A stretch of DNA of 64,000 bases from a virus (taxonomy: Duplodnaviria > Caudoviricetes): the IMG/VR virus record IMGVR_UViG_3300046710_000151, positions 1 through 64,000 of that record. One strand, 5' to 3'. Below, one piece after another: positions 29,862 through 60,509 of this stretch. The position numbers were made by a program, and so were the translations under genes. Numbering within the stretch: position 1 is the stretch's first letter; each line of letters begins with the position of its first letter. Below the pieces are notes generated by a model. It was given only the letters and a program-made list of their open reading frames with translations. It made no database searches and had not been told where the DNA came from.

Positions 29862-30260
29862 ATGTTTACGCACAGTATCCAGCGCACCTACAACGACGGC
29901 ATCACAAACACCGGCGGCGTGGAAACGGTCACCGCCGATAGCACACGCAACTTTGACGGTACCGTGCCGGGGTCCGGTACTCCCGACTACGAGATCGATT
30001 TCCCTCTCACCCGTGCGAACCTTAAATCGGTCTGCATCTCGACCGACAAGGCGCTGACCATCTGGATCAATCACTCCAGCGAGGACGTGGGTGAGGACAT
30101 CGCGGTCCCGGCCGGGCAACCGGTGATCTGGAGTCTCGCGGCCAACGGGCTCGATAGCTGCCCGTTCGTAGACGACGTGACCAAACTGTACGTCACCGTC
30201 GTGGGAACCGCCCCGGCCATCCTGAAGATCCGGGCCTTGAGCGATCAGACGCCGGCGTAA
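29862..30260 (+). CDS. Hypothetical tail-region protein
   Basis: AAGGAG RBS; beta-rich, 132 aa. Confidence 0.65.
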   Translation: MFTHSIQRTYNDGITNTGGVETVTADSTRNFDGTVPGSGTPDYEIDFPLTRANLKSVCISTDKALTIWINHSSEDVGEDIAVPAGQPVIWSLAANGLDSCPFVDDVTKLYVTVVGTAPAILKIRALSDQTPA

Positions 30261-30469
30261 GGAAAGAGCGCCCGGCATTCGTCAATTGTCATGGGGTACT
30301 CCGAGTTATAGCAGCCTTCCATCGCGCAACTCTGCCAATGATGCGCCCCTTCGTGGCCTGCGGGGCGGTTGCAATAGCAACTCAGCTTTCGGGGGTCGGG
30401 GTCCGTCGGCTTCCGGTGATCCTTTCCGCACGTCGCCCCGCATGTTCGCTTGTCCTTCTGATCGTCCAT
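30245..30469 (-). CDS. Small Cys/His-rich ORF inside an inverted-repeat-bounded segment
   Basis: CGATCG...CYCNRPAGHEGAHHW; its C-terminus MTIDEC duplicates the tail-tip N-terminus. Confidence 0.45.
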   Translation of the reverse strand: MDDQKDKRTCGATCGKDHRKPTDPDPRKLSCYCNRPAGHEGAHHWQSCAMEGCYNSEYPMTIDECRALFPYAGV

Positions 30470-42149: not shown

Positions 42150-42470
42150 TTATGCGCTCTTCGCCAGCCGCAATTCATACGCTTCGTTGAATCCCCGGAT
42201 CAACGCCGGGATATCCAGCCCGTGCAGTTTGGCGAAGCCGCGCGGATCGGCGTCGTACTGATCGTGCTCTTTCCGTGTCAAAGGAATTGCTGAGAGATCC
42301 GATGACTTCTGAGACGTGGCGTGCGGTCCGGTGTGGCAGGGATCGCAGGGGCCAAGCCCGGAAACGACCGATGCCTGCCGGCGGATGAAGCGCAGGTAAG
42401 CCGGATCTCGCACCGGCGCGGAGCCAGAGTACATGCGCTCACTGCGGATTCGCTTGGGTTGGACAATCAT
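42150..42470 (-). CDS. DUF968-like His/Cys (HNH-related) protein
   Basis: RDPAYLRFIRRQASVVSG...HTG...QKSSDLSAIPLTRKEHDQYD. Confidence 0.7.
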   Translation of the reverse strand: MIVQPKRIRSERMYSGSAPVRDPAYLRFIRRQASVVSGLGPCDPCHTGPHATSQKSSDLSAIPLTRKEHDQYDADPRGFAKLHGLDIPALIRGFNEAYELRLAKSA

Positions 42471-43866: not shown

Positions 43867-44106
43867 TCATCGTTGGCTTACTGGTTTGATGTGCGTCCAT
43901 TTTTCACCATCCCATTCGTCGCGGCCCGACACGTGTTTAATAAACCGCTGTGCGGTGCCGTCCGGGTAGCAAGTGTAGGTCATATCGTTGGCCTCGAAGT
44001 CAACGTATGCGAGCCTCAAGCGCAGGGCGATATCGCAGCCGTTGCGCACGGCGTCGTCCAGATCGGAGCCGATCACCGCATTAAGCGTCAGGGATAGATT
44101 GTTCAT
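43867..44106 (-). CDS. Hypothetical protein
   Basis: Overlap-coupled to the upstream ORF. Confidence 0.55.
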   Translation of the reverse strand: MNNLSLTLNAVIGSDLDDAVRNGCDIALRLRLAYVDFEANDMTYTCYPDGTAQRFIKHVSGRDEWDGEKWTHIKPVSQR

Positions 44107-44642
44107 GCCGCCGCCCTCTTGCCACTCTGAATATAGGATGTGATGAAAAGTGCCCGGATTTCATCCGGTTTTACACGACCGTCGTGCTTGGTCAGCGAGT
44201 GGGCCAATACCATGGCGTACGCATCCACAAGGGCCGAAGCCTCGATCACAAGGCGGTCGGCAGCGGTTACGATGCGTTCGGGAGCGGTGGCGCTGACCGG
44301 CGGCTTGGGCTCCGGGAGTTTGGCCACGGCGAACGTTCCATCGGGCTGCTCACCTACGGCTGGTGCGATCCGCGCCACTTCCCAGGTACGAGTGCCCTTG
44401 CCGTCCTGTCTCATGCAGAGGGTAAACGATTCGCGGACGTTGACGCCTGCCGCTTCGATCTGTCCGGCGACTTCCGGGTCGAGGAAAAGCACACGGTTAT
44501 CCACGGTCGAGTACATCACACGGTCGCCAAAATCGTTGACGATGTGCTTGCCCTGGTTGTACTTCAGGGCGAGCGTTACGGGCACATTTGGCGCGAATTC
44601 AACCACGTCGCGCAAGGTTCGTTGCTGAGCTGCTGCTGCCAT
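44103..44642 (-). CDS. Hypothetical protein (starts MAAAAQQRTL)
   Basis: The GGAGG that forms hammerhead stem I lies 8 nt upstream of ATG 44642. Confidence 0.7.
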   Translation of the reverse strand: MAAAAQQRTLRDVVEFAPNVPVTLALKYNQGKHIVNDFGDRVMYSTVDNRVLFLDPEVAGQIEAAGVNVRESFTLCMRQDGKGTRTWEVARIAPAVGEQPDGTFAVAKLPEPKPPVSATAPERIVTAADRLVIEASALVDAYAMVLAHSLTKHDGRVKPDEIRALFITSYIQSGKRAAA

Positions 44643-44650
44643 TTCGGGTT

Positions 44651-44705
44651 CCTCCGACGCCTCGCGGCGTTTCGGCACGTTACCAGCGCGCCTTCATCAG
44701 GGAGG
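44651..44705 (-). ncRNA. Type I hammerhead ribozyme fold (copy A)
   Basis: Minus strand CCUCC-CUGAUGA-A-GGCGCG(CUGGUAA)CGUGCC-GAAA-CGCC(GCGA)GGCG-UC-GGAGG: full core plus three stems. Confidence 0.75.
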
Positions 44706-45035
44706 TCAGAATCCGCAGTCTTCAATGAACGAGCGGATATGGGTGCCAAGCCGCGTCTGCGTTTCGTCCGCAGCGCGTTTGCATTCGGGGCACAGTTCCC
44801 CAAACTGGTTCGGCTTCTCGCAATCCGGGCAGCAGAGAACCGCGTCGTCATAGTCCGGCTCTTCCGGGCGTTCAAGTTCCCTACCGGGCAGCAGCAGCCC
44901 CAACGCGCGGGCTCCCGTAACGAGATGTTGCACAGCATTGTGCAGATCGCGGTTCTGTTCGTTTTCCGATTCGGTGATGTGCAGCTTAATCAGGTGCAGC
45001 GCCTTCGAAAATTCCGTGTTTGCGTCGATTGCCAT
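44706..45035 (-). CDS. Hypothetical protein with a CxxC...CxxC zinc ribbon
   Basis: MAIDANTEF...CCPDCEKPNQFGELCPEC; bracketed by the two hammerheads. Confidence 0.7.
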   Translation of the reverse strand: MAIDANTEFSKALHLIKLHITESENEQNRDLHNAVQHLVTGARALGLLLPGRELERPEEPDYDDAVLCCPDCEKPNQFGELCPECKRAADETQTRLGTHIRSFIEDCGF

Positions 45036-45044
45036 TTTCGGTTT

Positions 45045-45099
45045 CCTCCGACGCCTCGCGGCGTTTCGGCGCGTTACCAGCGTGCCATCGTCAGGGAGG
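45045..45099 (-). ncRNA. Type I hammerhead ribozyme fold (copy B)
   Basis: Minus strand CCUCC-CUGACGA-U-GGCACG(CUGGUAA)CGCGCC-GAAA-CGCC(GCGA)GGCG-UC-GGAGG. Confidence 0.72.
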
Positions 45100-45114
45100 C
45101 TAAACGGCTTTGGC

Positions 45115-45408
45115 TTATGCGCCTTCGGCTTTTGCCAGGGCGGCCCGCATTTCGGCATGGTACGGAGCGCGGCAGTTCGCTCCCACCGAGCAAAACGGGC
45201 AGTACTGAATCATGTTGTGGACTACGGCGTACAGGTCTGGCGCGGCGGCGATCAGATTAGCATTCGCCGCTTGTTGTTCTCGCCCCATCCAGGTGCGGAT
45301 CTCGGCAACGCCGGACATTCGATTATCCGCATTGCCAGAGAGAACAACCGTATAGCGTGAATTCGCTTTCCACGGTCCCGGTGTCCATTTCGGCGTGTTA
45401 TCAGACAT
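45115..45408 (-). CDS. Phage hypothetical protein (TPGPW...ANANLIAAAPDL family)
   Basis: KWTPGPWK and AANANLIAAAPDLY motifs common in phage early genes. Confidence 0.75.
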   Translation of the reverse strand: MSDNTPKWTPGPWKANSRYTVVLSGNADNRMSGVAEIRTWMGREQQAANANLIAAAPDLYAVVHNMIQYCPFCSVGANCRAPYHAEMRAALAKAEGA

Positions 45409-45419
45409 GAGAGTTTCCT

Positions 45420-45878
45420 TCATGCAACTTCACTTCGTTCGGTCTTTGGCGCGCGCGCCGCGCCCATCGGTTTCGGCGCCACGGCCCGGCGTGCCTGTTC
45501 GTAGCGGATCATGTGCAGCTCCGCCAGTTGCGTCAGCGGGAAGCCGGATCGGCCGTAGCGCGCAACGAGCGTGGTCAGGCGGTCGGCCAGTTGGGCGTTG
45601 GTGCTGGCCTGGGTTTGTTCCAATTGGATATCGCGCGTCATGGGCTTGCGGGCAGGCTGGCAGTGGACGCACTCGGCTTCATGCGCCCGGAGCGCCAGGC
45701 GCATATGGTCGATGGTCTGCGCTTGGCAGATCAAAGCGTCGCGGACGGAGCAGCGTGGGCCGAAGATCGCCAGTTCTTCCGCGTCCTGGGCGGCCAGGTC
45801 GGCTTCGGTGACTTCGTTCTCCGGCTGCGGGGCGGGTTCGGTTTCCTCGAAGGTGGTTCGTTCGGTGAAGCGGTCCAT
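45420..45878 (-). CDS. Hypothetical protein, probably leaderless
   Basis: ATG 6 nt after the predicted -10 element. Confidence 0.55.
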   Translation of the reverse strand: MDRFTERTTFEETEPAPQPENEVTEADLAAQDAEELAIFGPRCSVRDALICQAQTIDHMRLALRAHEAECVHCQPARKPMTRDIQLEQTQASTNAQLADRLTTLVARYGRSGFPLTQLAELHMIRYEQARRAVAPKPMGAARAPKTERSEVA

Positions 45879-58879: not shown

Positions 58880-60043
58880 TTATCGATGCCACATCCCCAT
58901 CACCTCGCGTATGAGCATATCGGCTCTGCTTCGGACCCACGGCGCATAATGCTGCTCGGTAGTCTTGATCGAACTGTGCCCCAAGAGCATCTGCACGGTT
59001 TCGAGCGACCGCCCGGCTTCCAACAGCCGCACGGCGAAGGTATCGCGGAATCGATGGGCGTGGATGTTAAAAACGCCGGAAAGCGTGGAGAGCGGGCACA
59101 GGTACGAAGAATAGAAGCCGTTGGCGATAGACCGCGCATCGGTCTGGTACCGGGAAGCGACGGGAGGAATGAACGCGCCAGCCTCGCTCAATCGCGGTGC
59201 CTGCCGGATGACTTCGGCTACATCGGGCGGCAAGGGGCACATCACCCACTCCCCGGTCTTGGTCTGGTAGGTCTCATAGACCGCCACGCCATGGCCGCCG
59301 AGCGTGAGCGTTCGGATCTTGCGCGGCTCAAACAGCACGGCATCGCTGGCGCGCAGGCCGGTCCATCGCAAGACCAGCAGCAGAGCACGGGCGGTTTCGG
59401 GATGGGCACTCCACAAGCCACCGAAATGCCGGCGGTTGCCAAACTGCTCAGCCGTGGCGAAGATCCTGGCTTCCTCTTCGATCGTGAACGGCAAGGTCGG
59501 CTCCCGGTTGTCACTGGGTTTCAGCAGTCCCGAGGCCGGATTGTCACCGATCCATTTCCGGGTAAGGCAGAATTTGAAGAAGGAACGTGCCAAGTCGATG
59601 CGGCTCCGGTGCGTCGTGCTGGCATAATCCCAGGTGCTCACCCACTTGTCCAGGAGTCCGAGATTCAATTCGGAGAGGTACTGGAGACCGGCATGGGCGC
59701 ACCAGGCAGCGAGAGAGGCCGTCATGGCGCCGTGGACCTGGCGTACCGTGCGCGGCTGGCGCTTGGCGGCCAACAAGGCGTTTTTCCAGGCATCGAGGGC
59801 GCTGGCGATTTCAACGCGCGGGACTTCGGGCGTACCCAGTTCGATAGCGCGTTTCAGGTGCTCGGCAACCTGCCAGCTTGTGGTGTTCAGCGAATGCCGA
59901 TGGTAGGCGCCGTGGGGATCGAGGCCGATCAACCAGACCGGGCAGCCGCAACGCCGATGTGTGCGGAGCTCGCCCGTGGTCATGCCCTTGGCGCGCAGCT
60001 TCTTTTCGCAGATTCTAAGGTGACGGCAGTAGAGGGAGAGCAT
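58880..60043 (-). CDS. int: Tyrosine recombinase / phage integrase
   Basis: LRWTGLRASDA (R), KTG (K), HAHRFRDTFA (HxxR), LGHSSIKTTEQHY (H/Y); N-terminal LYCRHLRIC...CGCPVW. Confidence 0.95.
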   Translation of the reverse strand: MLSLYCRHLRICEKKLRAKGMTTGELRTHRRCGCPVWLIGLDPHGAYHRHSLNTTSWQVAEHLKRAIELGTPEVPRVEIASALDAWKNALLAAKRQPRTVRQVHGAMTASLAAWCAHAGLQYLSELNLGLLDKWVSTWDYASTTHRSRIDLARSFFKFCLTRKWIGDNPASGLLKPSDNREPTLPFTIEEEARIFATAEQFGNRRHFGGLWSAHPETARALLLVLRWTGLRASDAVLFEPRKIRTLTLGGHGVAVYETYQTKTGEWVMCPLPPDVAEVIRQAPRLSEAGAFIPPVASRYQTDARSIANGFYSSYLCPLSTLSGVFNIHAHRFRDTFAVRLLEAGRSLETVQMLLGHSSIKTTEQHYAPWVRSRADMLIREVMGMWHR

Positions 60044-60047
60044 GGGG

Positions 60048-60509
60048 ATGATTAGGGCAATTAGCTTATGGCAGCCTTGGGCCACTCTGTGGCTCTTGCG
60101 TAATCCGGATGAGAAAATCTACGAGACGCGGCACTGGTATACCGGGTACCGCGGTGAGTTGGTTGTACACGCGGCAAAGAAAAGCGATGGCGAGGTACGG
60201 GCGGCTCTGAGCGATCCGTACATGCTGGAGCGGCTTGCTGCGCATGACATCGAGCATGTCACAGATCTGGCCTTCGGCGCCCTGATTGGCCGGGTGCGCT
60301 TGGTCGGCTGTTGCCAGATGTCTCTGATTCCGGAACCTAGCGAGCGAGAGCGACTGGTAGGTTGCTGGGAGCCGGAGCGATATGCCTGGGAGCGCGGGGC
60401 ACTCACCACAATTTTTTCGCGGCCCATTCCATGGAAGGGCTCGCAGGGGTTCTTTGACGTACCAGCACTCACGGAAGGCGTGGCGGCAATAGAGGGAGAG
60501 CATCAGTGA
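60048..60509 (+). CDS. ASCH domain protein
   Basis: AISLWQPWA, KIYETRHW, YRGELVVHAAK, GALIGRVRLVGC, IPWKGSQGFF. Confidence 0.9.
   Translation: MIRAISLWQPWATLWLLRNPDEKIYETRHWYTGYRGELVVHAAKKSDGEVRAALSDPYMLERLAAHDIEHVTDLAFGALIGRVRLVGCCQMSLIPEPSERERLVGCWEPERYAWERGALTTIFSRPIPWKGSQGFFDVPALTEGVAAIEGEHQ

Follow-up and report, generated by a model that had tools for sequence, protein, structure and literature searches.

The window analysed here is a 64,000-nt stretch of DNA, positions 1 to 64,000 of virus record IMGVR_UViG_3300046710_000151. Its minus strand carries two 55-nt elements, copy A (44651-44705) and copy B (45045-45099), both assigned to the type I hammerheads on sequence, on fold and on a match to the covariance model R2 described below. 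They lie in a leftward run of small genes annotated without function and bracket a single 109-aa open reading frame (44706-45035, minus strand). This ORF encodes a zinc-ribbon-like protein (CxxC...CxxC) that matched no family and for which relatives were found for the zinc-ribbon part only; its TGA stop codon (44708-44706) directly adjoins stem I of copy A. The 179-aa gene downstream (44103-44642, minus strand) belongs to a conserved phage and prophage family with ~76 relatives. Upstream, a 102-aa gene assigned to phrog_1273 (45115-45423, minus strand) ends with a TAA codon (45117-45115) 15 nt before copy B, and a homologue search with this gene found no relatives. Both flanking genes fell only into 'hypothetical protein' clusters of the protein Atlas. 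An earlier reading of the letters alone (hereafter the sequence-only reading) had described two near-identical minus-strand hammerheads of 55 nt and, bracketed by them, a zinc-ribbon ORF (45035-44706) stopping right at copy A; every one of these coordinates held.

The whole virus record (76.6 kb) encodes terminase, portal, protease, tape measure, integrase and ParB-like proteins. A temperate lifestyle is indicated by the ParB-like gene (54846-55799, plus strand) together with the tyrosine-integrase-like gene (58880-60085, minus strand), and from its gene content the record is probably that of a tailed, temperate phage. The GC content of this phage is 59-60%, and blastn of the 3 kb around the locus against cultured phages gave no match. 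A 358-aa frame on the plus strand (44184-45260) runs antisense over both ribozymes and the 109-aa gene and matched no Pfam or PHROG family. GC by codon position did not distinguish the strands; the minus strand was taken as coding because its genes have homologues, and the plus-strand frame is probably an artefact of high GC. The sequence-only reading had also placed the elements in an 'early transcript', a proposal not supported by our scan for promoters and terminators, whose results, promoter-like sites included, were at chance level.

Read along the minus strand, copy A consists of CCUCC (44705-44701), the core segment CUGAUGA (44700-44694), an extra A (44693), stem II (GGCGCG/CGUGCC, with one G.U pair and the loop CUGGUAA), GAAA (44673-44670), stem III with its loop (CGCC-GCGA-GGCG), U16.1 (44657), C17 (44656) and GGAGG (44655-44651), the last forming the 3' side of stem I. 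In copy B, stem I (CCUCC/GGAGG) and stem III (CGCC-GCGA-GGCG) are unchanged and the core reads CUGACGA, with an inserted U, GAAA and a GUC triplet; the stem II of this copy has six pairs including one A.C mismatch and again carries the loop CUGGUAA. The two copies are identical at 51 of 55 positions, copy B differing in N7 (C), in the extra nucleotide (U) and in the A.C mismatch of stem II. The repeat extends past the 55 nt through the spacer and the sequence ATGGCA, giving ~70 nt at 91% identity. All hammerhead core residues (C3 U4 G5 A6 N7 G8 A9, G12 A13 A14, A15.1-U16.1 and H17 not G) are intact in both copies, with C17 at the cleavage site. The G10.1-C11.1 pair does not follow A9 directly, one nucleotide lying between them (A in copy A, U in copy B). 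The three-way junction is the minimum-energy fold of each isolated 66-nt stretch. Cleavage is predicted between 44656 and 44655 in copy A and between 45050 and 45049 in copy B, and the two predicted sites are 394 nt apart.

Infernal searches with the Rfam 15 hammerhead models, a check that the sequence-only reading had proposed, gave no match to either copy at the gathering score or even at E<=10, whether the window, a 1-kb stretch or a 91-nt stretch was searched; this includes Hammerhead_1 (RF00163), whose type I topology and catalytic core the copies have in common. A bare motif count in the window gave 3 matches with 1.14 expected, which is not significant alone. Since Rfam was empty and the motif count non-significant, we sought relatives. 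From six seed elements we built a covariance model (R1), which detected 120 copies distributed over 89 sources. A second model, R2, was rebuilt from 104 elements of other phage contigs, none of them from the window. R2 matched copy B with 72.2 bits (E = 4.5e-18) and copy A with 69.5 bits (E = 2.7e-17), the next-best match within the window having an E value of 0.11. Both copies rank among the best-scoring of the class, and they are its only two members in the whole virus record. The third motif match (30222-30290), supported by neither R1 nor R2, was rejected. No class member scored above 15.7 bits with RF00163, whose gathering score is 34, and Rfam likewise missed other class members, including those that lack the insertion. 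The silence of Rfam therefore reflects a gap in the models and does not count against the ribozymes. A large phage hammerhead class invisible to current Rfam models means that such elements are missed in phage annotation.

A pattern scan of viral contigs prescribed the core, an inserted W, GG...GGU...CC and GAAAC, leaving stem I, stem III and the cleavage triplet free. It returned more than 117 stretches, and ~105 of the 129 parsed matches were complete type I hammerheads with their own stems I and III. Among 119 distinct relatives, 96.7% of cells were paired, compared with 72% in shuffles and 31-44% with slid partners. Changes on both sides were seen in 19 of the 20 pairs, all three stems covaried, and none of 500 shuffles reached the observed values of pairing and covariation. 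U16.1 was present in 117 of the 119 elements and H17 was never G (113 C, 6 A), at positions that the search pattern did not force. In addition, loop II (typically UGGU) forms a pseudoknot with a tail, ACCR, starting two bases past stem I: 89% of its cells were paired and all four pairs covaried (for example GGC:GCC, UUGC:GCAA, UAGU:ACUA and UGAU:AUCA). Because this pseudoknot is outside the model, it provides an independent test of the structure. In the window, the contact that loop II makes with the stem I side joins UGGU to the ACCR tail by four pairs in copy B and three in copy A. Pseudoknots of this general kind give the tertiary contact between stems I and II in all hammerhead types (PMC3088659). 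The independent model match, the covariation of the class and the intact core positions bear out the earlier assignment to the hammerhead class, with complete core and three stems, and confirm at the level of sequence that both elements are genuine type I hammerhead-class motifs.

The base after A9 was U in 96 of the 119 elements, A in 2, absent in 9 and never C, and judged by this distribution the inserted nucleotide is a trait and the norm of the class, not a defect. Twelve elements have no base between A9 and G10.1; their bulge, an A or a U, immediately follows the G10.1-C11.1 pair (CUGAYGA-GA-stem; for example L099:3037-3117, L135:9649-9729 and L066:1375-1448), so that the extra 5'-strand nucleotide is kept, shifted by one position. 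The class may be defined by an open stem I of 5-6 bp, one inserted nucleotide after A9 (normally U), a stem II of 5-9 bp, and a 4-bp pseudoknot between loop II and a tail 2 nt downstream of stem I. A further type I candidate with stem I AGGUG/CACCU and triplet GUA was noted on contig L008 (10214-10277, plus strand); the GGAGG-type match of the same contig is on the other strand and has a seemingly degenerate stem II.

Class members lie on the same strand as the genes. They usually start 0-3 nt past the upstream stop codon (median 3 nt; 0 nt in 22) and occur in arrays around single small genes; same-strand arrays were present in 23 contigs, with a median spacing of 736 nt (range 293-6742 nt). 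Most have CCCGC/GCGGG or similar as stem I and a separate strong Shine-Dalgarno (SD) sequence 20-45 nt past the cut. Two examples come from named phages. In a Christensenellales phage from human gut (PV036454.1; L141:1517-2568, plus strand), an amidoligase gene is directly followed by small genes, and three consecutive gaps between these each contain a class member. Flavonifractor phage Castelnaud (ON453903.1; L142:1213-1286, plus strand) has one 68-bit member within a minus-strand CDS (901-1374, hypothetical protein), and its position suggests a gene-calling error in this cultured phage. Some neighbourhoods of relatives are also dense in other ribozymes: a twister-sister, two RAGATH-5 and one type II hammerhead lie within 3 kb of a type I copy, all on one strand (L023:2696-5728, minus), and L047 (4894-4973) likewise has a twister-sister.

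At both copies in the window, the SD is part of the ribozyme itself. The ribosome-binding site (RBS) region of the 109-aa gene (45033-45049, minus strand) comprises GGAGG (45049-45045), the linker AA, ACCG (45042-45039), AAA and the AUG (45035-45033), and ACCG pairs with UGGU of loop II in copy B (45079-45076). That of the 179-aa gene (44640-44655, minus strand) comprises GGAGG (44655-44651), the tail AACCCG and the AUG (44642-44640). The gap between GGAGG and AUG is 8 nt at copy A (AUG at 44642) and 9 nt at copy B (AUG at 45035), and the pseudoknot partner (ACCG or CCCG) lies inside this spacer. Twelve elements with a GGAGG stem were collected, with the insertion (the two window copies, L004, L006, L010 and L087) or without it (L003, L005, L007, L009, L011 and L012). 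In 10 of the 12 an ATG lies 5-10 nt past GGAGG and no other SD is present, which upholds the proposal of the sequence-only reading that GGAGG doubles as the SD of the gene that follows and as the 3' side of stem I. Measured from the cleavage site, the ATG of GGAGG-stem members is 10-15 nt away. In L006 and L010 the pseudoknot partner includes the A of the AUG. Stem I thus takes up the SD and the pseudoknot the spacer, and the whole initiation region is contained in the folded ribozyme.

Few class members share this arrangement: when GGAGG was not part of the search pattern, ~5% of the members found had the SD in stem I. Masking of the SD can therefore not be what the class does in general; its common role is better described as cutting between stop codon and ribosome site, with SD masking as a lineage-specific elaboration. 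The kind of ribozyme, the pseudoknot contact and the bracketing of genes were already published in 2011 (PMC3088659). In the full-text literature searched, no natural hammerhead was described with the SD as a helix strand, the nearest cases being engineered switches, and an SD built into a ribozyme helix is a little-described variant.

The fusion recurs in front of relatives of the 179-aa gene, both in Acidobacteriota genomes and in metagenome contigs. In five Acidobacteriota loci (genome contigs L150, L152, L154, L170 and L191, from Solibacteraceae, Bryobacteraceae and Bryobacterales assemblies) a CCUCC/GGAGG hammerhead stands immediately before a homologue with 46-52% identity; these are the closest homologues, each with a hammerhead, and on this ground the window phage probably infects Acidobacteriota. 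Locus L154 has a second, weaker homologue (27% identity) ~1.4 kb upstream. The pattern scan of prokaryote genomes returned 53 stretches, with ~45 expected by chance as estimated from pattern degeneracy and database size; 6 passed a strict helix test and R2 added L170 and L191. Loci reached via the 179-aa protein alone are unbiased toward GGAGG, and two of these eight distinct loci had an SD-fused hammerhead (L203 and L204; R2 scores of 67.8 and 73.8 bits, AUG 9-10 nt past GGAGG), the other six having ordinary leaders or overlapping genes. No hammerhead was found upstream of the 179-aa homologues in viral contigs L013-L020, so this gene can do without the ribozyme. A comparison of 12 GGAGG-type elements, L203 among them, showed covariation in stems II and III and variation in the pseudoknot (for example GGAU:AUCC in L203), while every stem I was CCUCC/GGAGG; part of this invariance is built in, since 9 of the 12 were found by a pattern requiring GGAGG.

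Hammerhead ribozymes cleave after C17 and leave a 2',3'-cyclic phosphate on the upstream product and a 5'-OH on the downstream product, ends that can be ligated. From the comparisons above we consider it fairly probable that copies A and B are self-cleaving type I hammerheads of a widespread phage class, which cut the leftward operon RNA 5' of each RBS and hold the SD and spacer in the ribozyme until it is cut or unwound by a ribosome. Placed right after the upstream stop, each ribozyme would cut the polycistronic RNA immediately 5' of the RBS of the next gene, and the 109-aa gene would be freed as a 394-nt monocistronic message. The usual leader would have been compacted away in the window lineage, GGAGG itself supplying the 3' side of stem I and the SD-AUG spacer pairing with loop II. 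The initiation region would stay locked until the RNA is cut and the short 3' product dissociates, or until a ribosome terminating on the adjacent stop unwinds the ribozyme. After the cut, the folded ribozyme and the 2',3'-cyclic phosphate would stay on the upstream RNA and the downstream RNA would begin with 5'-OH-GGAGG. For stem I alone after cleavage we predicted a Kd of 3-22 μM, at which the cleaved product should fall off and expose the SD; on this prediction it is plausible that cutting frees the RBS. As the upstream stop abuts copy A, terminating ribosomes would unfold copy A and could free its SD without a cut.

That translation of each cistron has to await either the cut by its own hammerhead or termination on the abutting stop is a stricter proposition that we advance only tentatively. 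If true, such a natural cleavage-gated translation start would be nature's counterpart of an engineered RBS-masking hammerhead switch. Bacterial switches whose RBS stays hidden by a 5' UTR hammerhead until cleavage were reportedly engineered by Ogawa and Maeda in 2008 and by Wieland and Hartig in the same year. In those switches, as at this locus, the SD is paired in a ribozyme helix, and there cleavage liberates it for translation. The switches are synthetic, built on a Schistosoma ribozyme and controlled by ligand, whereas the window elements are natural and have no recognisable ligand domain. The design of such RBS-hiding switches is described in PMC12192606. The type I hammerheads of eukaryotic RNA viruses resemble the window elements in their long stem III, in their position just upstream of a viral ORF and in a proposed link between ribozyme and translation; unlike the window elements, they involve no Shine-Dalgarno mechanism. 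An SD held in the ribozyme would give phage hammerheads a testable job, and this locus would be a clean test of cut-dependent translation.

Alternatively, the ribozymes may do no more than process the RNA. Operon RNA would be cut into single-gene messages, the SD would have come to lie in stem I by intergenic compaction, and cutting would not regulate translation, a 5-bp helix being opened in any case by ribosomes or by translational coupling; differential stability could be set through the structured 3' end and the 5'-OH. The separate SD of most class members and the class-wide abutment on stop codons are in keeping with this explanation, and so is the weak sequestration of the SD in ensemble predictions that include context. 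In 180 nt of context the minimum-energy fold lacked the hammerhead, and three of the five SD bases were 55-83% unpaired in the ensemble, a calculation that ignores tertiary contacts. Processing into gene-length mRNAs is also the role that Perreault et al. (2011; PMC3088659) proposed for the long phage transcripts in which they described clustered hammerheads flanking single genes or short blocks, in prophages of Agrobacterium tumefaciens, Azorhizobium caulinodans and Clostridium scindens; these hammerheads cleave in vitro and in E. coli. The same role is proposed here. The likeness is close, both sets having several same-strand hammerheads between varied small phage genes and a pseudoknot between the stem I side and loop II, and the window, with intergenic ribozymes on one strand 394 nt apart around a single 109-aa phage ORF, matches their layout. 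Unlike those clusters, the present class has a systematic inserted nucleotide after A9 and is undetected by Rfam. Moreover, that paper makes no mention of 'Shine' or 'ribosome binding', whereas in the window copies stem I takes its 3' strand from the SD and loop II pairs with the spacer. Against processing alone, the GGAGG subgroup has both SD and spacer in ribozyme helices (stem I and the pseudoknot), and the fusion was retained before one gene family while stems II and III changed, which would be an odd coincidence if masking were inconsequential. We therefore regard processing without any effect on translation as unlikely.

It is improbable that the elements are relics that no longer cut, inactivated by the extra nucleotide and by stem or pseudoknot blemishes, and now serving only to couple translation through an anti-SD hairpin or to stabilise RNA. 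Blemishes do exist. The A.C mismatch of copy B falls at a stem II position where no more than 2 of 119 relatives lack a pair, and copy A has an inserted A instead of U and a weakened pseudoknot with three of four pairs. The absence of an Rfam match could be read in the same way, and some hammerhead-like sequences were inactive in the study of Perreault et al. (PMC3088659). However, the catalytic core positions are all intact in both copies, both are among the top scores of the class, and the inserted nucleotide is the class norm. Its effect is also known from a viroid. According to the account given in PMC3705267 of De la Pena & Flores 2001, the plus-strand hammerhead of chrysanthemum chlorotic mottle viroid (CChMVd) tolerates an extra A10 between A9 and G10.1, cleaves 3-4-fold faster with U there, and is harmed by C or G. 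The phage class has one extra nucleotide at the same core position, and its preference for U or A (U 96, A 2, C 0) fits these data, so the appeal to CChMVd made in the sequence-only reading was sound. The CChMVd ribozyme differs from the phage class in that it processes a replicating circular RNA, has no coding context and uses a loop-loop contact, where the phage class has a tail pseudoknot.

Circularisation in the manner of retrozymes, raised by the sequence-only reading, was not supported: a double cut would free a 394-nt RNA with SD and ORF, whose 5' GGAGG would pair with CCUCC of copy A and rebuild a hammerhead across the ends for ligation by the ribozyme or by RtcB, and identical stem I strands of the same polarity would let the ends pair while hammerhead cleavage leaves them ligatable, but the segment between the copies is an ordinary coding sequence that ends in a stop codon, array spacing elsewhere is very variable (293-6742 nt), and Perreault et al. 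searched clustered phage hammerheads for circular or spliced products without finding any (PMC3088659), which makes circles highly improbable. As in retrozymes and viroid-like circular RNAs, a segment of ~400 nt is bracketed here by two hammerheads that have the same polarity and an identical stem I; unlike those RNAs, the locus is a DNA phage operon with a protein-coding segment and no retroelement features.

The gene order in front of the 179-aa family varies between loci. In L204 a single hammerhead directly precedes the 179-aa homologue. In L010 a nearly identical hammerhead is followed by an unrelated 88-aa Cys-rich ORF that overlaps the 179-aa homologue, with no second ribozyme. In the window the order is hammerhead B, the 109-aa zinc-ribbon ORF, hammerhead A and the 179-aa gene. 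From these arrangements it looks as if small ORFs were inserted at this joint, in the window with duplication of the ~70-nt hammerhead-SD-ATGGCA module, and the module may serve as an insertion joint for small gene cassettes. A few genes downstream of the 179-aa gene, the window has a small DUF968/HNH-like gene (42150-42470, minus strand); this gene is also present in most related loci (L196, L197, L199, L200 and L203), marking a conserved small-gene module.
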